DNA of 32,000 nucleotides from Phycisphaera mikurensis NBRC 102666 (GCF_000284115.1 NC_017080.1:2820001-2852000); one strand, 5' to 3'; shown: positions 1,278 to 21,577, numbered from the stretch's first letter. A program made the numbers and translations. Notes: generated from the letters alone by a model not told the origin.

Positions 1278-2276
1278 TCAGCCCAGCGCCCGGCCGACCG
1301 CCGCGACGACCTCCGCGTGGCAGGGGCCGTTGGTCGCGATGACGCCGCGGTTGTTGTCGAGGCCGCGGCCTTTCGAGAAGTCCAGCCGCCTGCCGTCGAC
1401 ATCGGTGACGGTGCCGCCCGCCTCCTCGAGCACGGCGACGCCGGCGGCGTGGTCCCAGATGCGCTCGACGTAGCCCGGCCGCGTCGGCAGCCGCAGGTAC
1501 GCGTCGGCCACCCCCATGGCGACCGCGGCGTACTTCGCCTGGCTGTCCATCCGCACCGGGTCGGCGGTGACGCCGAGCATCCTCACCACCTCGGCGGCCG
1601 CGTCCTGCTTGGTGTGCCCGCTCTCGACGCTCTCGCACACGCGGAGCACGCCGGGCACGCTCCGCTCGCTCACGGCGATCTTCCGCCCGTGGTGCGGGTC
1701 GTGGTCCGTGCCCTCCACCGGGTGCCGGTACGCGCCGGCTCCCTTCACCGCGACCAGCACCACGCCCGGCTCGTCCTGGCCGTCCACCGCGAGATTCGGG
1801 CACCCGAGCACGCCGCCCACCACCTCGCCGCCCTCGATCAGCCCCAGCGCCACCGCGTACTGCTCGCCGCGGAGGAAGCCCTTCGTGCCGTCGATCGGGT
1901 CGAGCGCCCAGTAGCGGTCTTTCCGCGGATCGTCGTCCCCGGCGGTCGCCGGATCGAACGATCCGCGGTCGATGGCCTCGATCGCCTCCTCGGCGGGCAT
2001 CCCCGCGTGCACCGCCACGCGCCCGAGCAGGTCGCGGTGCTCCCCGGTCCGCAGCTCCTCGGAGCCCTCCTCGCCGACGACGACCAGATCCGGGCACCGC
2101 TCCGCGAGGATCCCGCAGACCACCGCCTGCGAGGCGAAGTCGGCCACGGTCACCGGCGACTTGTCGCCCTTCTCCAGCGTGCCCGCGTTGACCAGGTCCG
2201 CCTGCACCCGCACGCAAACCTTGCAAGCCGCCCGCACCGCCTCCAGCCCCGCCTCGATCAGCTCGTCTCGGTTCAT
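1278..2276 (-). CDS. 3'(2'),5'-bisphosphate nucleotidase (HAL2/SAL1-type, inositol monophosphatase superfamily)
   Basis: The 332-aa ORF starts at an ATG (complement 2274-2276). It carries IMPase-family motifs: VVGEEGSE, WALDPIDGTKGFLRGEQYAVALGL (the HAL2/SAL1 signature) and WDHAAGVAVLEEAGG. Confidence 0.8.
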   Translation of the reverse strand: MNRDELIEAGLEAVRAACKVCVRVQADLVNAGTLEKGDKSPVTVADFASQAVVCGILAERCPDLVVVGEEGSEELRTGEHRDLLGRVAVHAGMPAEEAIEAIDRGSFDPATAGDDDPRKDRYWALDPIDGTKGFLRGEQYAVALGLIEGGEVVGGVLGCPNLAVDGQDEPGVVLVAVKGAGAYRHPVEGTDHDPHHGRKIAVSERSVPGVLRVCESVESGHTKQDAAAEVVRMLGVTADPVRMDSQAKYAAVAMGVADAYLRLPTRPGYVERIWDHAAGVAVLEEAGGTVTDVDGRRLDFSKGRGLDNNRGVIATNGPCHAEVVAAVGRALG

Positions 2277-2687: not shown

Positions 2688-4508
2688 TTGCCTGTCGCCA
2701 ACCCGTACATCCGCAACTTCTGCATCATCGCCCACATCGACCACGGGAAGAGCACCCTGGCCGACCGCATGCTGCAGGGCACCGGGGCGATGGACGACCG
2801 CACCGCCCAGGACCAGAAGCTCGACTCGATGGACATCGAGCGCGAGCGCGGCATCACCATCAAGGCCGCCGCCGTCTCCGTCGAGCACACCTGGAACGGG
2901 CAGACCTACGAGCTCAACTTCATCGACACCCCCGGCCACGTCGACTTCCACTACGAGGTCAGCCGCGCCCTGGCCGCCTGCGAGGGCGCCTGCCTCATCG
3001 TCGACGCCACACAGGGCGTTGAGGCCCAGACCGTCGCCAACCTCTACAAGGCCGTCGACGCCGACCTCGAGCTCATCCCGGTCATCAACAAGATCGACCT
3101 GCCCTCCGCCGAGCCCGAGCGGCGGGCCATGCAGGTCGAGGACGTCCTGGGCCTGCCCGCCGAGGACTGCATCCTCACCTCCGCCAAGTCCGGCCAGGGC
3201 GTGGCCGAGCTGCTCGACGCCATCTGCGAGCGCTTCCCCCCACCGGAAGGCGAGATCGAAGCGCCCCTGCAGGCCCTCATCTTCGACGCCAAGTACGACG
3301 ACTACCGCGGCGTCATCGTCTACTTCCGCGTCATGAACGGGCGGCTGAAGAAGGGCGACCGCATCCTCTTCATGGGCAAGAAGCGGACCCACCAGGTCAC
3401 CGAGCTGGGCAAGTTCAAACCCGACATGGAGCCCAACGCCGACCCCTTCGAGGCCGGCGACGTCGGCTACATGATCGCCGGCATCAAGACCCTCGAAGAC
3501 GTCAACATCGGCGACACGATCACGCTGGACAACCACCGCGCCGCCACCGCCCTGCCCGGCTACGAGGAGCCGCAGCCGATGGTCTACTGCGACTTCTACC
3601 CCAGCGGCGACACCATGTTCGACGACCTGCGCGAGGCCATCGGCAAGCTCAAGGTCAACGATGCCAGCTTCACCTACGAGCCCAGCAGCTCCGAGGCCCT
3701 CGGCTCGGGGTTCCGCTGCGGCTTCCTGGGCATGCTCCACATGGACATCATCCAGGAGCGGCTCGAACGCGAGGGCCACGTCTCCCTCGTCCAGACCGCC
3801 CCCACCGTCACCTACGAGGTCCAGCTCACCGCCAACAAGGACGGCGTGCAGGAGGTGATCCAGATCACCAACCCCGCCGAGCTGCCGGACATGAGCCGGG
3901 TGAAGTCCATCCGCGAGCCCATGGTCGCCGCCGAGGTCATCACCCCGACCACCTCGATCGGCGACATCATGAAGCTCTGCGAGAACCGCCGCGGCGTCTA
4001 CAGAGGCCAGCGCTTCCTCTCCGAGGACCGCCAGATCCTCGAGTACGAGCTCCCCCTCGCGGAGATCATCTACGACTTCTTCGACAAGCTCAAGAGCATC
4101 ACCAGCGGCTACGGCACCGTCGACTACCGCGTCACCGGCTTCCAGGCCGGCGAACTCGTCAAGATGGACATCCTCGTCAACGGCTCCCCCGTCGAGGCCC
4201 TCTCGCTCATCGTCCACCGCTCCAAAGCCGAGTCCCGCGGCCGCCACCTCCTCAAGAAGCTCAAGGAGCAGATCGACCGCCACCTGTTCGAGATCCCCCT
4301 CCAAGCCGCCATCGGCGGCAAGATCATCGGGCGCGAGACGATCAAGTCCGTCGGCAAGAACGTCACCGCCAAGTGCTACGGCGGCGACGTGAGCCGCAAG
4401 CGGAAGCTGCTGGAGAAGCAGAAGAAGGGGAAGGACCGGATGAAGCGAATCGGAACGGTGGATATTCCGCAGGGGGCGTTTATGGCGGTGCTGGACACGG
4501 GGGAGTGA
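2688..4508 (+). CDS. lepA: elongation factor 4 (LepA)
   Basis: This is the C-terminal 606 aa of ORF 1317..4508. It reads (L/M)PVANPYIRNFCIIAHIDHGKSTLADRML...DTPGHVDF...NKIDL..., with an LepA C-terminal domain ending KCYGGDVSRKRKLLEKQKKGKDRMKRIG. The start is assigned to TTG 2688, preceded by GGAGG at 2677-2681. The in-frame ATG at 2580 would add 36 Arg/Pro-rich codons with many A/T third positions, which is atypical for this genome. Confidence 0.9.
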   Translation: MPVANPYIRNFCIIAHIDHGKSTLADRMLQGTGAMDDRTAQDQKLDSMDIERERGITIKAAAVSVEHTWNGQTYELNFIDTPGHVDFHYEVSRALAACEGACLIVDATQGVEAQTVANLYKAVDADLELIPVINKIDLPSAEPERRAMQVEDVLGLPAEDCILTSAKSGQGVAELLDAICERFPPPEGEIEAPLQALIFDAKYDDYRGVIVYFRVMNGRLKKGDRILFMGKKRTHQVTELGKFKPDMEPNADPFEAGDVGYMIAGIKTLEDVNIGDTITLDNHRAATALPGYEEPQPMVYCDFYPSGDTMFDDLREAIGKLKVNDASFTYEPSSSEALGSGFRCGFLGMLHMDIIQERLEREGHVSLVQTAPTVTYEVQLTANKDGVQEVIQITNPAELPDMSRVKSIREPMVAAEVITPTTSIGDIMKLCENRRGVYRGQRFLSEDRQILEYELPLAEIIYDFFDKLKSITSGYGTVDYRVTGFQAGELVKMDILVNGSPVEALSLIVHRSKAESRGRHLLKKLKEQIDRHLFEIPLQAAIGGKIIGRETIKSVGKNVTAKCYGGDVSRKRKLLEKQKKGKDRMKRIGTVDIPQGAFMAVLDTGE

Positions 4509-4681
4509 ATTTGCGATGATTCCGTTGCGACGGTCGAACTGCCTCGATGAAAGTTAATATGAGCACTCGGAATTGGTCGGCCAGCCGACACTCAAGAATG
4601 TAAACATCTGCCTTCGCGCCTCACCGAGATCCATGAAAGAATAGGATCTATTCAACCCGAATCGGTTCTTGAAGATTCATC

Positions 4682-7600
4682 ATGCAGTACCACACAATGA
4701 GCGATCCTGATCCTGCTTGGCAGTCAGCCATTGCCGACCGCAACGCGGTCCTCTGGATTACGCTCGGTGGCGCTAAATTGCCTGGCACATCGGTAGACGT
4801 GTATGCTCGCCTCCTCGCACAATCGTGGAACTCGATCTACTTTGAAGATGGATCTCTGCTTGATCGATGCTTCGCCGATGCAGAAAATCTCGCGGAAGAA
4901 TTGAGCTTCAAGCTGCGGCGACTTGATGGTCAAGACAATGAGCTAGCTAGACTGACTGGGAATCGAATCGGTATCTACGTGCCGCCGCTAGCAGATCCTG
5001 TTGAAGATCCCGCGGGCTTCGCCACACGCCTCGACATGTTCCGCCGTGTTCCACAGACCTCCACGGTGTTCGTGATATCTGACGGGGCAGCCGAGGATCT
5101 CAGTCTCGTCTCGCAAGCTTCTCGAATGCTTCCGGATGGAATGCGGGAGGTGGTGATCCTCGGTGGGAAACGCCCCGCTGAGGGTCCGCGTGCGAAGCGA
5201 GCAGTCCACTGGACAGCGGAAGCTGCAACTCTCGCCGCGTTCGCTCGCGAAGCAGTTGAGGCTGCCGATTCGAATGAACTCCGAGTGCGGGTGCGGAGCG
5301 GCACAGGCGTCGCAGATGTGAATCTCACGAAAGCTCTAGATCTCAGTTACCCCATCACAGATCGTTTTCAGATCGTTCGAGCTGCAGAGCTGACGGCCGA
5401 AGTCGAGGCGACGGAGGAGCTAGTTCAGACCCTCTTGACTGCAACCGGGTTCGATACAAGGCCATACGCCGCAGGAATTGTTTACAATCGCAATGGAGCG
5501 ATTCTTCACGACGTGCGACGCGCCCTCAAGAAATTTGAACGCGTCGGCCCGGAAGCGACATCTACTCTATGGATCGATGCAGAACCCGCATCGGGTGCGA
5601 CTACAGCATTGCGGCAACTCGCATTTGATCTTGCTCGCGACGGCTTTCCTGTATTGGTCGCAGATCCCGCCACAGTAGATTTTGACTTTCAGCAGGTCGT
5701 GGCCTTTCTTAAGTCTACTCGAGAAGTCGCTACAGATCAGTCGGATTCCCGCCTCGGCGAGTACCCTTGGGTCATTTTGTTCGATGCTGAACATGTGGCA
5801 AGGTCCGCCGAGTTCGTGACAGGATTAGCGAACGGCCTACGCAAGCGCCGGCAAGCTGCAGCAGTTGTCGCGGTGCGGCCTCACGTCCTATCCGATAATT
5901 CGGGGAGGATCAAAGCTAGCGGGCCTTCCACGTCGCTCGGACACCCGTTGCACAATCTTATTCTTCAATCAGAAGCGGAGGCTTTCGGCGAACACCTGAA
6001 CAAGTTCTTGCCGCTTAACCGCAAACGCAGTAGCCAGGAGTGGGGCAAATTCTGTCGTGAGGCCGAACGCCTCACCGGCACCGGCAAGCAAAGCCTATTT
6101 TGGGTCGCGATTCGATTCTGGCTGTTGCGCATGCCGAATGCTGAAGAGCCGCTGCGACAATGGCTTGCCCGGTCGCTGCAGGTAGTCCTCGAAGGCTCTG
6201 AGGCGCGGATGATGGCGGTTATTGCCACGGCCGTTCTGTCCCGCTACCGCTTGCCCCTTCCGCTGCGTTTGCTGACACCGGATGAGCGGGTCGAGATTCG
6301 AGACGTAGCCAAGCGAGAAGCTCAGGGCCTCGGCTTGCGCGAGCTCGAGGAGGAACGTCGATCTTTCATCTCGTTTCCGCATCCGATGATAGCCGATGAA
6401 ATACTGAGGATTTGCTTGGCCGAGCCGGCGGTTCTTGGATCATTAGGTGTATCGCAATGTTCCGGCCTTCTTGATCTTCAACTCCATGTGATCGAGAAGC
6501 TGATCCCCCGCGATTCGATGGGCTACGCTGAGGTGATACCCATCCTCGAGGAACTAGTGACCACCGCACTTCGCGTGGATCCTCGCTCGGCGCCTTCAAA
6601 CTATGCAGAGCGCGAGCGGATCGTGCTAATGCTTGAGCTGGCTCCAGATTCAGTCTTCGACTCGAGCGAAGTTTTCCTCCACCATCTTGCGATCTCACGT
6701 AGACACTTAGCAGCAGATCCTCCTCCAACAGCCTTCTGGGAGGATCCTGCGGCAGTTTGCGAGCAGCTTGAACTCGCAGAGTCTCATCTGAAAGAAGCCA
6801 TCGATCTTGGTCTCGACCGTGAAAACGAGTCGCAGGAAAAGCCGCTCAATCTCTATGTCTCCCTCGCATTGACTCTTGCTGTTCGCGCGGAATTTGAGCG
6901 AAAGATAGGGCGTTCCGATGAAGGAGATCGCTTTGCAGAGTCAGCTCAAGCACGCTATCTGCAAGCTCAAGCAATCGATCCTGACAACACCTACGTCCTC
7001 GAAAATTACGCTCGCTTGAAGATCAGGCAAGCGCGAGAGACGACGGAGTCTTCCGAACGACTGGAGCTTCTGGCGGACGCAATTTCCCTGCTTGACTGGG
7101 AGATGGCAGTCGACGATCGTAACGACCGCGAGGAGGTCGCACTCGAGGAGATGGTACGAGCCTACTCGATGCTTGAGCATGATACCGGCTTGGCGTCGGT
7201 GCGTGCGCTCGCTTCAACAGGTGCAGAGGCAGCTTCTGTAGTGATTGCTCGATTGCTGGCCTACCCAGATCGTTTTAGTAACCAGACGCAAGAAGAACCA
7301 AGGCTGAAGGAAGCGATCGATCTTCTAAAGCGTATCGATCCGGCTACAGCAAGTTGGCGTTCAAGAATTCTTCTGCACGAGCTTCAGGCTCTCAATGATC
7401 CTTATGGATTTGCAGCTCGTCTTGAACCTCTTGAAGAGCTTGATGCGCTAGGGGAATTCCCATGGCCACTCAAGCTACTGTACGAGCGCGCGATCCTGCT
7501 CTATCAGCTGGGTGAACATAAGAGAGGGAGCGAACATTTCCAGATTCTGCGTGATTCAATCTCATCGCGAAGTTCTGCGGTCTTCATCCCGGACGAACTC

Positions 7601-7855
7601 AGGTTCCTAGCCGACCCTAGAGATGAATTCCGCTCCGCCCTGCTCACGTCCCTCCGAGTGACGAAGACTACTGACGCTGGAAGCAGCTACCGTGGTATCC
7701 CTGAAGGTTGGGGCTCGACAGAGGTCACGTTTCGCCCTTACCTCTTTCCACGACAAAACATTCGTCGAAACGACGATTTAGATTGCATCATTCAATTTAC
7801 AACTTTCGGTCCCCAGGCAGTGCCGCGCAGCGAGATTCAATATGGCAAGGCGTAG
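4682..7855 (+). CDS. large STAND-like NTPase with lysine-less P-loop, TPR-like C-terminal repeats and unassigned terminal domains (1057 aa)
   Basis: ORF-track ORF with ATG at 4682; a second in-frame ATG lies at 4697 and there is no clear SD. Reading by eye: aa 1-195 is a Rossmann-like alpha/beta region with a Gly-rich loop ITLGGAKLPG. Aa 295-400 looks like an NTPase core. STLWIDAEPASGATTALRQLAFDL sits where Walker A would be, but has GATT instead of GK[ST]. YPWVILFDAEH is Walker-B-like, and AAVVAVRP is a STAND-type strand ending in Arg. LHNLILQSEAEAFGEHL and GKQSLFWVAIRFWLL resemble STAND helical-lid motifs. Aa 690-960 is helical and TPR-like (for example ARYLQAQAIDPDNTYVLENYARLKI). Aa 960-1057 is a beta-rich tail. 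The function is inference. Confidence 0.6.
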   Translation: MQYHTMSDPDPAWQSAIADRNAVLWITLGGAKLPGTSVDVYARLLAQSWNSIYFEDGSLLDRCFADAENLAEELSFKLRRLDGQDNELARLTGNRIGIYVPPLADPVEDPAGFATRLDMFRRVPQTSTVFVISDGAAEDLSLVSQASRMLPDGMREVVILGGKRPAEGPRAKRAVHWTAEAATLAAFAREAVEAADSNELRVRVRSGTGVADVNLTKALDLSYPITDRFQIVRAAELTAEVEATEELVQTLLTATGFDTRPYAAGIVYNRNGAILHDVRRALKKFERVGPEATSTLWIDAEPASGATTALRQLAFDLARDGFPVLVADPATVDFDFQQVVAFLKSTREVATDQSDSRLGEYPWVILFDAEHVARSAEFVTGLANGLRKRRQAAAVVAVRPHVLSDNSGRIKASGPSTSLGHPLHNLILQSEAEAFGEHLNKFLPLNRKRSSQEWGKFCREAERLTGTGKQSLFWVAIRFWLLRMPNAEEPLRQWLARSLQVVLEGSEARMMAVIATAVLSRYRLPLPLRLLTPDERVEIRDVAKREAQGLGLRELEEERRSFISFPHPMIADEILRICLAEPAVLGSLGVSQCSGLLDLQLHVIEKLIPRDSMGYAEVIPILEELVTTALRVDPRSAPSNYAERERIVLMLELAPDSVFDSSEVFLHHLAISRRHLAADPPPTAFWEDPAAVCEQLELAESHLKEAIDLGLDRENESQEKPLNLYVSLALTLAVRAEFERKIGRSDEGDRFAESAQARYLQAQAIDPDNTYVLENYARLKIRQARETTESSERLELLADAISLLDWEMAVDDRNDREEVALEEMVRAYSMLEHDTGLASVRALASTGAEAASVVIARLLAYPDRFSNQTQEEPRLKEAIDLLKRIDPATASWRSRILLHELQALNDPYGFAARLEPLEELDALGEFPWPLKLLYERAILLYQLGEHKRGSEHFQILRDSISSRSSAVFIPDELRFLADPRDEFRSALLTSLRVTKTTDAGSSYRGIPEGWGSTEVTFRPYLFPRQNIRRNDDLDCIIQFTTFGPQAVPRSEIQYGKA

Positions 7856-8606
7856 CGCTAGAAGACCTTCGAAGCCTGCGAGGCCATCGGAAGACCTATC
7901 CGCGGGCTTGGCGCAGATCCTCGCCCGAAATCACCTACTTTCGGACGCCGCTCACCGCTACGTCACGTTTGTCGAAGGAAGTAGTGATATTGCGTATATC
8001 AATGTAGCGGCATCGAGATTTGCGGAGCGCACGGGAACAGATCTACTCGATGCGGGAAACGGGACGAAATTGACATTCTTTTCACCCGCTCGCCCGAGCT
8101 CCAACCTAGTGAGGCGAGGAGGGGTAGAGCAACTCAAGAAGCTTGCAGATGATCTGAAGGTTTTTGCACTGCAACTCGATGCTGCTGGCCCTATCTGCTT
8201 TCTCTTCGACCATGATCAAGCCGGCTGCGACGGTGCTCGCGAAGTGCGGAAGATGGGGTACCAGACTGACGCGAGATGCGTGCTTACGCTTGATCCAAAG
8301 TATCACCCCCGTGCGTGCAGACATGCTAGAAAAGGTGGCGATCCGGTCGTGATCGAAGATCTCCTGTCGCTCGACCTTCAGCGACGATTTTTTGCTCAAG
8401 GAGGTTCATCATGCGATGTGGCTTACATCTCCGGCGATATCTCACGATTCTCCTGGCGGCATCCGTCAAAAGACGATTTATGTAGATTTGCACAAGCTCA
8501 TGCTTCGTGCGAAGACCTGATCGAAGTGGCTCGTATAATCTGGCGAATTCGCGAACTCTGGAGACTTCCAGTGCCGGAGGAAGCACGACAACTGCTTGAG
8601 GCTTGA
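7842..8606 (+). CDS. stand-alone TOPRIM-domain nuclease (OLD / DUF4435-like), 254 aa
   Basis: The ATG at 7842 overlaps the upstream gene's last 14 nt. TOPRIM signature elements occur in the right order: YVTFVEGSSDIAYI (conserved Glu45 in an EGxxD context), ICFLFDHDQAGCDGAREV (DxD, Asp123/Asp125, followed by G) and DPVVIEDLLSLDL (the IE[ND]hL motif seen near the end of OLD/DUF4435 TOPRIM domains). There is no ATPase domain. The N-terminal 16 aa are Arg/Pro-rich. Confidence 0.65.
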   Translation: MARRSARRPSKPARPSEDLSAGLAQILARNHLLSDAAHRYVTFVEGSSDIAYINVAASRFAERTGTDLLDAGNGTKLTFFSPARPSSNLVRRGGVEQLKKLADDLKVFALQLDAAGPICFLFDHDQAGCDGAREVRKMGYQTDARCVLTLDPKYHPRACRHARKGGDPVVIEDLLSLDLQRRFFAQGGSSCDVAYISGDISRFSWRHPSKDDLCRFAQAHASCEDLIEVARIIWRIRELWRLPVPEEARQLLEA

Positions 8607-8610
8607 AGGA

Positions 8611-8719
8611 GCCGCTCGGAGCCGCTGGGGCCGGAGGAGCCGGTAGTGGGCCGCTGGTGGGGGAGCCGCTGGGGCCAGACCTACTTCTGAAGGAGGCTGA
8701 TCCGACCCCGCCGATACTC
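8611..8719. repeat. REP-like repeat, copy A (short GCCGCTSGG motifs followed by a ~55-bp core)
   Basis: Four degenerate gccgct[c/g]g motifs occupy 8611-8675. They are followed by the core ccgctggggccagacctacttctgaaggaggctgatccgaccccgccgatactc (8666-8719). The core recurs at 9927-9980, with about 47 of 54 positions identical in an ungapped alignment by my count. Confidence 0.7.
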
Positions 8720-20498: not shown

Positions 20499-20567
20499 GA
20501 GCCGACGGTACCCGGCGGCCGTGCCGATTCCGCTGGCGGCGACGCCGCGGCGCCGGACACTGGTTCC

Positions 20568-20897
20568 GTGCCGCCGCCCGCCGTCCCCCGCCTGCTCGTC
20601 CTGGTCGCAGCCGCCGCCGGCTCCGGCTGCGTCACGGCGACGCCGGCGACGCCGGCCCCGGGCGACGCCGGCGCGGGCCCGGCGGTGCTGCCGGGCACGC
20701 CCGCCCCGCGGGCGGGGGCCTGGTACGCCAGCCGGCTCGACGGCGGCCGCGGCGTGTTCGCGGGGCACGAGGGCCCGGTGCTGGCGACGCGGACCACGCG
20801 GACCCGCGGCGGGCTGCGCGTCGGCGCCGACGGCCGCGTCCGCGACACGCTGTCGACGAGCACGCGGGGCGAGTCGGTGGTCCAAGGCGTCCGCTGA
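20568..20897 (+). CDS. small lipoprotein, paralog 1 (109 aa)
   Basis: The start is the GTG at 20568 within ORF 19887..20897; there is no in-frame ATG. The lipobox context is RLLVLVAAAAGSGC. The mature part (AWYASRLDGGRGVFAGHEGPVLATRTTRTRGGLRVGADGRVRDTLSTSTRGE) parallels the next gene. Confidence 0.5.
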   Translation: MPPPAVPRLLVLVAAAAGSGCVTATPATPAPGDAGAGPAVLPGTPAPRAGAWYASRLDGGRGVFAGHEGPVLATRTTRTRGGLRVGADGRVRDTLSTSTRGESVVQGVR

Positions 20898-20926
20898 GCC
20901 GCGCGGCCGGGGCGTAGGGTCCGCCC

Positions 20927-21244
20927 ATGCACCGCCTCGCCGCCGTCTGCGCCTGCCTGCTCCCGCTGCCGGGCTGCCTCACGCCGCCGCCGGAGCCGGC
21001 GCCCGCCGCACCGCCGCCGGCCCCCGCGGGTGTGGTGCTGCCCGGCGGGGCCGACGGCGCCAAGGCCGCCTGGTACGACGACCGGCGGGACGGCGAGTCC
21101 GAGGTCGTCGCCGGCCCCGCCGTGGCCGAGCGGACGCAGAGCGTCACCCGCACGCGCGGCGGCCTGAACGTGACGGCCTCGGGCGAGGTCCGCGACACGC
21201 TGGACCGGCGGACCCGCCGCACGCGGGTGCGCACGGCGGAGTGA
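20927..21244 (+). CDS. small lipoprotein, paralog 2 (105 aa)
   Basis: The ATG is at 20927. The signal and lipobox read MHRLAAVCACLLPLPGC. The mature part (AWYDDRRDGESEVVAGPAVAERTQSVTRTRGGLNVTASGEVRDTLDRRTRRT) aligns with paralog 1. Confidence 0.6.
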   Translation: MHRLAAVCACLLPLPGCLTPPPEPAPAAPPPAPAGVVLPGGADGAKAAWYDDRRDGESEVVAGPAVAERTQSVTRTRGGLNVTASGEVRDTLDRRTRRTRVRTAE

Positions 21245-21274
21245 TCCGCGGCCCGGGTTCCCGCCGCCGGTGCC

Positions 21275-21577
21275 TCAGGCCGGCGGCTCGGCGAGCATGC
21301 CGGCGAGGCGGGCGGCTTCGTAGAGGGTCGCCCGGGTGATCTCGATCATCACCGAAGGCGGCCACTGGAGCGTGGGATCGTTGCGGTAGGCCTCGGGCAC
21401 GACCGAGAGCGTGAAGCGGCGGACGGCTTCCTCCACCTCGCCGCGGCGGCGGCGGTGGGCGGCCTCGTCGCCGCCTCGCAGCGGCTCGCGGACGTCGCGG
21501 GCGAGCATGATCGTGTTGACCTGCCAGTCGAAGTAGCCCTGCAGCGGGTTGTCCTGCTCGCTCGCGTGATCAACCAC
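21275..21577 (-). CDS. hypothetical protein (100 aa), start overlaps hisA stop
   Basis: The GTG start (complement of 21575-21577) overlaps the hisA stop (21570-21572) by 8 nt. Third codon positions are strongly G/C, as in neighbouring genes. The composition is not low-complexity (VDHASEQDNPLQGYFDWQVNTIMLARDV...). No family was recognised. Confidence 0.5.
   Translation of the reverse strand: MVDHASEQDNPLQGYFDWQVNTIMLARDVREPLRGGDEAAHRRRRGEVEEAVRRFTLSVVPEAYRNDPTLQWPPSVMIEITRATLYEAARLAGMLAEPPA

Follow-up and report, generated by a model that had tools for sequence, protein, structure and literature searches.

A conserved STAND-plus-TOPRIM gene pair behind lepA of Phycisphaera mikurensis is probably a two-gene abortive-infection module

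Introduction

What are two genes of foreign composition doing directly behind lepA in the chromosome of Phycisphaera mikurensis NBRC 102666? The stretch of DNA that we analysed, hereafter the window, is 32,000 nucleotides long (NC_017080.1:2820001-2852000; positions are counted from its first letter), and directly after lepA it contains a 4.1-kb islet of low G+C content (GC; 4509-8610) whose only content is two co-directional genes, one for a protein of 1057 aa and one for a protein of 254 aa. An earlier note on this DNA, made from the sequence alone, had proposed that the two encode a STAND-like sensor and a stand-alone TOPRIM nuclease and form an undescribed defence pair. The refuting conditions named in that note which computation can address were checked, and in every case the outcome favoured the proposal. 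From the analyses below, we conclude that a conserved STAND-plus-TOPRIM module is real and probably serves abortive-infection defence. The reading we favour, with moderate confidence, is that the two genes were acquired horizontally and make up an immune module of the abortive-infection type, in which a STAND switch is joined by a TOPRIM nuclease acting in trans. Of this reading, our data show which domains are present, that the catalytic residues are intact, that the two genes are strictly linked and co-diverge, that their composition is foreign and that defence and mobility genes are frequent among their neighbours.

Results

The two genes form a conserved pair

The gene pair is laid out in the window as follows.

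4682..7855, + strand: gene for the 1057-aa SIR2-like/STAND/TPR protein (BAM04542.1 / WP_014437755.1), identified from its open reading frame (ORF), Pfam, AlphaFold2 and Foldseek
7842..8606, + strand: gene for the 254-aa stand-alone TOPRIM nuclease (WP_154661873.1), identified from its ORF, AlphaFold2, a family profile, PADLOC and Foldseek
7842..7855, + strand: 14-nt gene overlap, with the small-gene ATG inside the end of the large gene, from the ORF coordinates

Both genes begin with ATG, the large one ends with a TAG stop at 7853-7855, and these coordinates reproduce exactly the two co-directional ORFs, with the second ATG 14 nt inside the first, that had been described previously. Because homologs of both proteins occur in many genomes, we take the two ORFs to be genuine genes and not products of chance. 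The sequence of the small protein matches WP_154661873.1 at 100% identity, and its start differs among public records, which give forms of 165 aa (BAM04543.1) and 232 aa (WP_154661873.1, from a TTG near 7908). We favour the ATG at 7842, and hence the 254-aa form, because a basic and proline-rich N-terminal M-x-RR-x-x-P-P is kept in homologs.

Co-occurrence of the two genes elsewhere had been put forward as a check on the pair, and the answer is nearly uniform: the TOPRIM gene lies immediately downstream of the STAND gene in 54 of 55 informative loci (21 of 21 genome loci and 33 of 34 further loci), a count that includes a few near-duplicate loci and leaves out as uninformative four contigs that end too early. 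The lone exception is a locus with a truncated large gene. A scan with the large-protein alignment across one genome per species (185,579 species genomes; pattern-based and of limited sensitivity) found 20 loci, and two further contigs and 36 metagenome loci show the same gene order, bar the exceptions named here. A profile of the small protein found a homolog right behind the large gene at every locus with downstream DNA, and both database homologs of the small protein sit directly 3' of an nSTAND7 gene. Across related loci, the distance from the large-gene stop to the start of the longest small-gene ORF ranges from -167 to +19 nt. The pair occurs in Planctomycetota, Myxococcota/'Deltaproteobacteria' and Betaproteobacteria, and its carriers include Paraburkholderia xenovorans LB400, Variovorax gossypii, Thauera, Accumulibacter and Gallionella. 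The identity matrices of the two proteins co-vary (r=0.97, Mantel p≤2e-4), also within the two main clades (r=0.89 and 0.96).

Two loci look like decaying copies. At L055:2661-3965, the large gene is cut off after ~400 aa and has no TOPRIM gene, and at L013:7023-11180 it is split into five or more ORFs, be it by frameshifts or by errors of assembly, with the TOPRIM gene still behind it.

Some proteins of 417-877 aa carry a member of this TOPRIM family as their C-terminal domain (TOPRIM matches of 83-160 bits), and their N-termini are AAA_16/AAA_22/nSTAND1/nSTAND5-like NTPases. Taken with the trans pair, these cis fusions indicate that this TOPRIM family has been wired repeatedly to STAND-class NTPases. 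Family members are found, too, behind N-terminal domains of unknown kind and ~110-260 aa (P0077, P0083, P0097, P0104, P0080 and P0089), which may be further sensor or regulator fusions; those of them that were scanned (P0077, P0080, P0083 and P0089) have no Pfam match.

The small protein is a predicted TOPRIM nuclease closest to retron Eco2

The small protein matches no Pfam family and no PHROG, and Pfam, NCBIfam, PHROGs and PADLOC hold no model of its family; its weak matches are to the Toprim part of type I-C retrons (PADLOC RT-Toprim_I-C, E=1e-4; NCBIfam retron_Ec67_fus, 14.5 bits against a cut-off of 450). Using a three-sequence profile against 1.84 billion cluster representatives, we recovered 83 relatives at E≤1e-3 and aligned 55 of them. 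Ten residues are invariant in these 55: E45, G46, D49, G94, D123, D125, G128, E172, K210 and R237. The positions that concern catalysis are the following.

7974..7988, + strand: E45-G46-S-S-D49, the TOPRIM Glu (metal A) and Asp (metal B); invariant, corresponding to Eco2 E374 and D378
8208..8216, + strand: D123-H-D125, the DxD motif; invariant, corresponding to Eco2 D460 and D462
8355..8357, + strand: E172 in V-I-E-D-L-L, the second metal-B ligand; invariant, corresponding to Eco2 E515
8469..8471, + strand: K210, candidate catalytic lysine; invariant in the 55 relatives

These correspondences come from a profile of the 55 relatives, which among PDB sequences matched the Toprim of retron Ec67/Eco2 (aa 369-579, E=3e-5) and paired E45, D123 and D125 with Eco2 E374, D460 and D462, and D49 and E172 with Eco2 D378 and E515. 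K210 falls within a stretch that HMMER aligned to the Lys-rich segment around Eco2 K562, the exact column pairing being our interpretation. In Eco2, mutation of the metal-A, metal-B or catalytic-lysine residues abolishes defence (PMC12405507). The AlphaFold2 model of the small protein, built on 47 sequences, has a predicted local distance difference test score (pLDDT) of 92.6 and contains a four-stranded parallel sheet, and Foldseek matched it to Eco2 (9lm3_A; probability 0.98, template-modelling score 0.51) and to the small TOPRIM protein 2fcj (probability 0.92). Against viral folds in BFVD, the search returned weak primase-type TOPRIM matches only.

Profile and model thus bear out the TOPRIM fold that the earlier note had read from three hallmarks, and the hallmarks themselves are present as E45-G46-x-x-D49, D123-H-D125 and I171-E172-D173-L-L. 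What changes is the affiliation, which had been given as typical of OLD/DUF4435 nucleases: by sequence profile, the TOPRIM is closest to retron Eco2 and not to Pfam DUF4435, and its relatives are tRNases, not necessarily DNases. Conservation and model together support the view that the small protein is a TOPRIM nuclease with a complete two-metal active site of the OLD/Eco2 type.

The nature of the substrate separates our reading from one that keeps the same architecture and makes the TOPRIM protein a DNase or nickase, like GajA or class 2 OLD in vitro, that degrades phage or host DNA. The active site is a generic OLD-type two-metal site, one family member weakly matches GajA, and the processive nuclease activity of OLD Toprim domains relies on two-metal catalysis (PMC12405507), all of which would suit a DNase. 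However, the nearest relative by both sequence and fold, the Eco2 Toprim, is an RNase/tRNase, and AriB and P2 OLD, formerly assumed to be DNases, cut tRNA in vivo. As the sequence itself holds nothing that discriminates between substrates, it is the activity of the nearest characterised relatives (Eco2, AriB and P2 OLD, which cut tRNA) that makes RNA or tRNA the more likely substrate, and we consider a DNase unlikely.

The large protein has a SIR2-like/STAND/TPR plan

The large protein matches the Pfam family nSTAND_NTPase7 (PF24404) with 499 bits against a cut-off of 27 (E=1.3e-149), as do all of its 19 full-length homologs (19/19; 22-55% identity, ~99% coverage); a repeat search seeded with the alignment of the large proteins recovered the identical set. 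The AlphaFold2 model built on these homologs (pLDDT 83) begins with a Rossmann-like alpha/beta domain (~1-200) and a short mixed region (~200-280), continues with a P-loop module that has helical and winged-helix parts, and ends with an array of helix pairs (~684-965) and a small beta domain (~985-1050). Among solved structures, the best Foldseek match is human SAMD9 (9zjs_B, E=2e-12) and the second is EfAvs5 (9jap_A, E=7e-12), followed by the TPR proteins OGT, IFIT1, SPY (SPINDLY) and Ctr9 at E=1e-4 to 1e-3. The following features were assigned.

4682..5281, + strand: N-terminal Rossmann-like domain (aa ~1-200), an inactive sirtuin (SIR2-like), from Pfam hits of homologs and the beta/alpha alternation of the AlphaFold2 model
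5525..6712, + strand: STAND nucleotide-binding/oligomerisation module (aa 282-677), matching Pfam PF24404 positions 1-399 of 399
5588..5605, + strand: non-canonical Walker A A-S-G-A-T-T (aa 303-308) with Ala306 at the lysine position, on a strand-loop-helix of the model
5771..5791, + strand: Walker B V-I-L-F-D-A-E (aa 364-370), D368 invariant
6674..6703, + strand: F-x-H-H-x-A-x-x-R-R motif (aa 665-674) at the end of the STAND module, from the family alignment
6731..7576, + strand: TPR-like alpha-helical repeats (aa ~684-965), presumed sensor, from the helix pairs of the model and TPR fold matches
7634..7831, + strand: small conserved C-terminal beta domain (aa ~985-1050), from beta strands at 990-1048

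The P-loop is unusual throughout the family. When the Walker A register is set by alignment to thymidylate kinase GSGKTT, position 306 is A in 17, G in 13, V in 3, T in 2 and I in 1 of 37 distinct members and never K or R, which gives a motif G-[A/G/V/T/I]-T-T (GGTT in 13/37). The canonical GxxxxGK[ST] is therefore absent, with the P-loop fold (strand-loop-helix) and the Thr residues retained. This missing lysine is a family-wide peculiarity that SAMD9 has as well, and it is no ground to exclude the protein from PF24404. Arg311, three residues past Walker A, is near-invariant (36/37) and is a candidate substitute for the lysine. In the F-x-H-H motif, F665, H667, A670, R673 and R674 are invariant in the 37 members and H668 is kept in 97%; the motif is a candidate equivalent of the winged-helix His ('MHD'-type) nucleotide sensor. 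Homologs show weak TPR_11 Pfam matches, and the C-terminal domain, possibly OB-like as in SAMD9, is strongly conserved (...FRP..F......D.LDC.IQFT.FGPQAVP). An antiviral-STAND/NLR-like order of modules had been claimed for this protein, and the STAND NTPase, the TPR array and the module order stand (Pfam E=1.3e-149, Foldseek ~1e-12), whereas the 'NTPase core' turns out to lack its Walker A lysine.

The N-terminal module that had also been claimed is present, and the iSirtuin hits of homologs identify it as an inactive SIR2-like domain: 8 of the 19 full-length homologs match Pfam PF24403 iSirtuin ('Inactive Sirtuin'; best E=7.5e-53). The N-terminus of the window protein itself matches no Pfam model, and no sirtuin model even at E=1. 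In the SIR2-like domain of 37 family members, no His or Asn is conserved in at least 90%, the only positions that reach this level being L24, W25, W49, P97, R116, M119, D214 and P224. The lack of a conserved His or Asn agrees with the Pfam label 'inactive' and with the non-catalytic SIR2-like domain of SAMD9.

These data bear on the idea that the SIR2-like domain is an active NADase effector as in Avs5, the TOPRIM protein being an accessory or a second effector. EfAvs5, a SIR2-STAND protein, is the second-best structural match, but Pfam labels the domain 'Inactive Sirtuin', the window protein reaches no sirtuin model, and the family has no conserved counterpart to the Avs5 pocket residues N141 and N180 (PMC11897194). 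As the catalytic residues are absent, we rejected an active SIR2 effector, a reading to which we give almost no credence. Pfam and PADLOC searches found no further domain in the large protein, and thus no effector in cis. AlbA_2 is likewise absent from Pfam scans of the window protein and its homologs, the chain beginning with the SIR2-like domain.

The islet has a foreign composition and no recognisable mobility gene

The islet follows lepA (GTP_EFTU plus LepA_C), which ends at 4508, and opens with a leader.

4509..4681, + strand: AT-rich intergenic leader that separates lepA from the first islet gene and with which the low-GC islet begins (GC 0.52 in window 4501-5000)

The leader is the probable promoter region, and a weak sigma-70-like match lies near it at 4492-4520. 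The islet has 55% GC compared with 72% in the surrounding housekeeping region. The sharp drop from the lepA tail to 8606 that had been noted before is confirmed in 500-nt windows, in which GC is 0.52-0.59 at 4501-8500, 0.64-0.74 before and 0.67-0.75 after, and in third-position GC, which is 0.55 in the large gene and 0.50 in the small gene as compared with 0.81-0.98 in host-gene frames that were themselves picked by a third-position GC filter. Elsewhere in the window, 20501-21500 has a very high GC of 0.79-0.83, well over the window average.

A search of the islet borders found no integrase, no tRNA and no convincing att-type direct repeat. Right behind the small-gene stop, at 8608-8680, where GC regains the host level, lie four copies of GGAGCCGCT(C/G)GG, which could be the remnant of an insertion junction or merely GC-rich intergenic sequence. 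An Rfam scan detected no retron RNA or other RNA family within the islet, the sole Rfam family of the window being tRNA. A tRNA-Met (CAT) gene lies at 1114-1187 on the - strand, 3.3 kb upstream, with genes for an inositol monophosphatase and lepA in between; as it is not adjacent to the islet, it is unlikely to be an integration site. The remaining window is made up of housekeeping genes (inositol monophosphatase, WD40, T2SSE ATPase, permease, GH57 and others).

A Phycisphaerae metagenome contig (L023:10001-15125) carries a homologous pair (48% identity) adjoining an inositol monophosphatase gene whose product is 41% identical to that of the window (1278-2276, 2.4 kb upstream of the islet). 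This likeness may reflect a shared chromosomal neighbourhood or an insertion hotspot.

At other loci the pair often lies among defence and mobility genes

In 26 of 27 loci, the pair is poorer in GC than its flanks, the mean difference being 6.4 points. Within 6 kb of the pair we found a DISARM DrmD-like helicase (E=0), C5 DNA methylases (4), ResIII restriction subunits (4), ABC-3C components and a Schlafen-type helicase, together with mobility genes for tyrosine integrases (4), rve integrases, resolvases and TniQ. This neighbourhood, as a descriptive tally rather than a statistical enrichment, is typical of defence islands and mobile elements. Individual loci illustrate it. One pair adjoins the DISARM DrmD-like SNF2 helicase (L003:3131-6496); another lies in an island with an SNF2 helicase, a reverse transcriptase, an N6/N4 methylase, a DDE transposase, ResIII, ArdC and SSB around it (L024, 1-9901 and 16351-22787); a further one adjoins a serine recombinase and an S24 repressor. 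Whether the pair sits in defence islands had been raised as a check in the earlier note, and the answer is divided: elsewhere the pair often lies beside restriction-modification, DISARM, integrase and transposase genes, and in the window it is solitary.

Distribution and context also speak to a non-immune role, in which a STAND regulator would govern a TOPRIM enzyme of RNA maturation (RNase M5-like), DNA repair or replication. In its favour, the proteins of many STAND clades are regulators outside defence (PMC13581612), the weak fold matches include RNase M5 and small TOPRIM proteins, and the window context consists of housekeeping genes. Such a role is nevertheless very improbable in our judgement, for the pair is patchy and rare across unrelated phyla (the 20 loci of the limited-sensitivity scan of 185,579 species genomes), has a foreign composition and decaying copies, lies elsewhere in restriction-modification, DISARM or islands resembling integrative and conjugative elements, and has antiviral proteins as its closest folds.

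The same mobile surroundings would suit a toxin-antitoxin-like addiction or exclusion module, in which the large protein neutralises a TOPRIM toxin and the pair stabilises the mobile element that carries it. A tight two-gene operon with an overlap, foreign GC in 26/27 loci and frequent integrase, transposase or recombinase neighbours fit this idea, as does the toxicity of a truncated Eco2 Toprim on its own (PMC12405507). However, a STAND/TPR protein of 1057 aa is far bigger than an antitoxin needs to be and is a hallmark of ligand-sensing immune receptors, and no mobile-element gene lies beside the pair in the window. We regard an addiction module as quite unlikely, while noting that the concept overlaps with abortive infection and that the distinction is partly a matter of degree.

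The pair differs from each named system

The chassis closest to that of the large protein, SAMD9/Avs5/Avs9, had not been considered in the earlier comparison, which had covered PARIS, Gabija, OLD and Avs and had rightly found each of them to differ. SAMD9 and Avs9 have in common with the window protein, in the same order behind the effector, a SIR2-like non-catalytic Rossmann domain, an intermediate domain, a STAND nucleotide-binding and oligomerisation domain (NOD), TPR repeats and, at the C-terminus, a small beta domain, which is an OB fold in SAMD9 and possibly OB-like in the window protein, and the predicted output would be alike as well, namely translation shut-off by a tRNase-type effector. 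AlbA_2 is the tRNase effector of SAMD9 and bacterial Avs9 (PMC12680541). In SAMD9, too, the Walker A lysine is replaced, by GGT where the window family has G-[A/G/V/T/I]-T-T; GGT in place of GKT is a highly unusual trait of the SAMD9 family (PMC5445408), and cryo-electron microscopy of SAMD9 confirmed the lysine-less P-loop, with ATP still bound, and a non-catalytic SIR2-like domain that mediates activating contacts (PMC13600222). The differences are that the window protein has neither the AlbA_2 (Schlafen-like) tRNase nor a SAM domain, that the nuclease here has the unrelated TOPRIM fold and comes from a separate downstream gene, and that the lysine-replacing His of SAMD9 (H737) has no counterpart, position 300 of the window family being Ala/Ser. 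Loss of AlbA_2 has been described for some SAMD9-family members (Mekhedov et al.; PMC5445408).

Avs5 is a proven anti-phage STAND protein whose sensor clusters with that of SAMD9 (PMC13581612), and EfAvs5 has a canonical Walker A (K379/S380) and an active SIR2 NADase pocket that includes N141 and N180 (PMC11897194). Avs5 and the window protein are alike in being one large SIR2-STAND-sensor chain, as their rank in the structural search reflects. Unlike Avs5, the window pair has neither an active SIR2 NADase as cis effector nor a Walker A lysine, and has a trans TOPRIM instead. The window protein is, moreover, an nSTAND7 protein without an nSTAND3 match, nSTAND3, a term that the Avs5 paper mentions, being reportedly the family of Avs5. 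In PADLOC-DB 2.0.0, the large protein matches no Avs model and has no other match at E≤1.

In PARIS and AbiL, as here, a large NTPase sensor and a separate small OLD-type TOPRIM nuclease are encoded by two genes, and in PARIS AriB, once set free by the sensor ATPase, forms dimers and cleaves tRNA-Lys (PMC11464382). The sensor there is an ABC/SMC-like ATPase, whereas here it is a STAND/TPR protein. Six members of the TOPRIM family weakly match AbiLii; the TOPRIM protein has no significant match to an AriB or DUF4435 model, and neither protein has an AriA/AriB hit in PADLOC. As the islet contains no ABC ATPase and the partner is a STAND NTPase, we rejected PARIS and AbiL. By sequence profile and by fold, the small protein has its closest relative in retron Eco2/Ec67 (type I-C), and Eco2 is a caged TOPRIM that cleaves tRNA (PMC12916289). 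In the retron, a reverse transcriptase is fused to the Toprim, an msr/msd RNA is present and a cage of multicopy single-stranded DNA is the regulator, whereas the islet has neither the reverse transcriptase nor the RNA, and a STAND partner takes the place of the cage. A retron was therefore rejected, the small protein being Toprim only.

OLD and Gabija GajA likewise couple the TOPRIM catalytic scheme to an NTPase, through an ABC-type ATPase fused in one chain where the islet has a separate STAND-class chain; P2 OLD cuts tRNA-Thr (PMC12445682). Finally, the multi-gene STAND conflict systems (Kaur et al. 2020/2021; bacterial CARD-NLR-like) are a precedent, both computational and experimental, for STAND sensors that signal to separately encoded effectors, but shared adaptor domains (EAD, Death-like, CARD) couple the components there, and none shared by the two proteins stood out here on inspection, no search aimed at one having been made. 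In the published work on multi-gene STAND systems that we searched, no TOPRIM effector is described, and Kaur et al. 2020 names neither Toprim nor SIR2. The conclusion that the pair is not a named system agrees with PADLOC-DB 2.0.0, which gave no significant match and only weak hits of the small protein to TOPRIM models.

Discussion

In the abortive-infection reading that we prefer, the TOPRIM protein, co-translated with the large one, is the only plausible enzyme of the pair. In the uninfected cell, the nuclease would be kept inactive, either by binding to the STAND protein, for which the dead SIR2-like domain is a candidate docking surface, or by staying monomeric. A phage- or plasmid-derived ligand would bind the TPR region and shift the STAND protein into a different nucleotide-dependent conformation or oligomeric state; even though the lysine is missing, the nucleotide-bound NOD may steer this shift, as in SAMD9. 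This change would assemble or release active TOPRIM dimers that cut nucleic acid, most likely tRNA or other RNA, so that translation stops and the infection is aborted. Two versions of the model can be envisaged, one in which the resting STAND protein sequesters the nuclease and frees it when triggered, as in PARIS, and one in which the nuclease is recruited to and activated on STAND oligomers, as for the cis effectors of Avs proteins. What we infer in this model is that the two proteins interact physically, what triggers them, in which order the steps follow, what the nuclease cuts and that the pair has a defence phenotype.

Several of our results weigh against the reading. The Walker A lysine is absent in 37/37 members, which makes NTP hydrolysis, and possibly binding, uncertain. 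The SAMD9/Avs5 likeness is structural only, resting on the predicted model: a profile of the family, run with HMMER against PDB sequences at E≤10, found no SAMD9 and no Avs5 chain, its matches being confined to the P-loop of thymidylate kinase and to weak TPR hits. As there is no similarity at the sequence level, we speak of a 'SAMD9/Avs5 plan' and not of a proven family member. Confidence in the model is low over the C-terminal beta domain (pLDDT 53-72), and the Foldseek E-values of the TOPRIM are weak (~0.02) despite the high probability. The islet is solitary amid housekeeping genes in the window, with no other defence gene nearby, and the neighbours counted at other loci carry no statistical weight beyond the tally itself. 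Carriage by phages was not supported either: a scan of viral contigs that covered the large protein found no contig with a relative of it, and there was no match to a PHROG family.

A bolder reading is possible, though we hold it tentatively: the pair would be the first NLR/STAND receptor with a separate TOPRIM nuclease and a bacterial counterpart of SAMD9, with AlbA_2 replaced by a trans TOPRIM tRNase, and the lysine-less P-loop and dead SIR2 domain would be ancient, conserved regulatory parts of a SAMD9-type chassis, the latter a platform on which the effector, whichever it is, docks or is activated.

As to novelty, trans-acting STAND effectors and NTPase-coupled TOPRIM nucleases are both known principles. 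In the literature we searched (for iSirtuin, nSTAND7, the locus tags, the accessions and STAND with TOPRIM), we found no description of the pair or of the large-protein domains; a 2026 survey of 589 STAND clades never mentions TOPRIM (PMC13581612), and all database names of both proteins are 'hypothetical protein'. Since nSTAND7 and iSirtuin are already Pfam families, the claim of an undescribed pair has to be narrowed, and it holds for the pairing and for the TOPRIM partner only.

Few components of prokaryotic immunity are as widespread as STAND/NLR-like receptors and OLD-type TOPRIM nucleases. So far, STAND proteins have been seen with effectors in cis or linked through adaptors, and TOPRIM nucleases with ABC ATPases or a retron reverse transcriptase; a strictly conserved STAND-plus-TOPRIM operon is a further combination and a candidate system absent from PADLOC-DB 2.0.0. 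The pair also supplies a stand-alone, probably regulated, predicted RNase/tRNase of 254 aa. Its chassis has the two oddest traits of SAMD9, the dead SIR2 domain and the lysine-less P-loop, in only 1057 aa and with a separable effector. The pair could therefore be a simple bacterial model for autoinhibition and activation of the SAMD9 type, with relevance to SAMD9/9L disease mutations.

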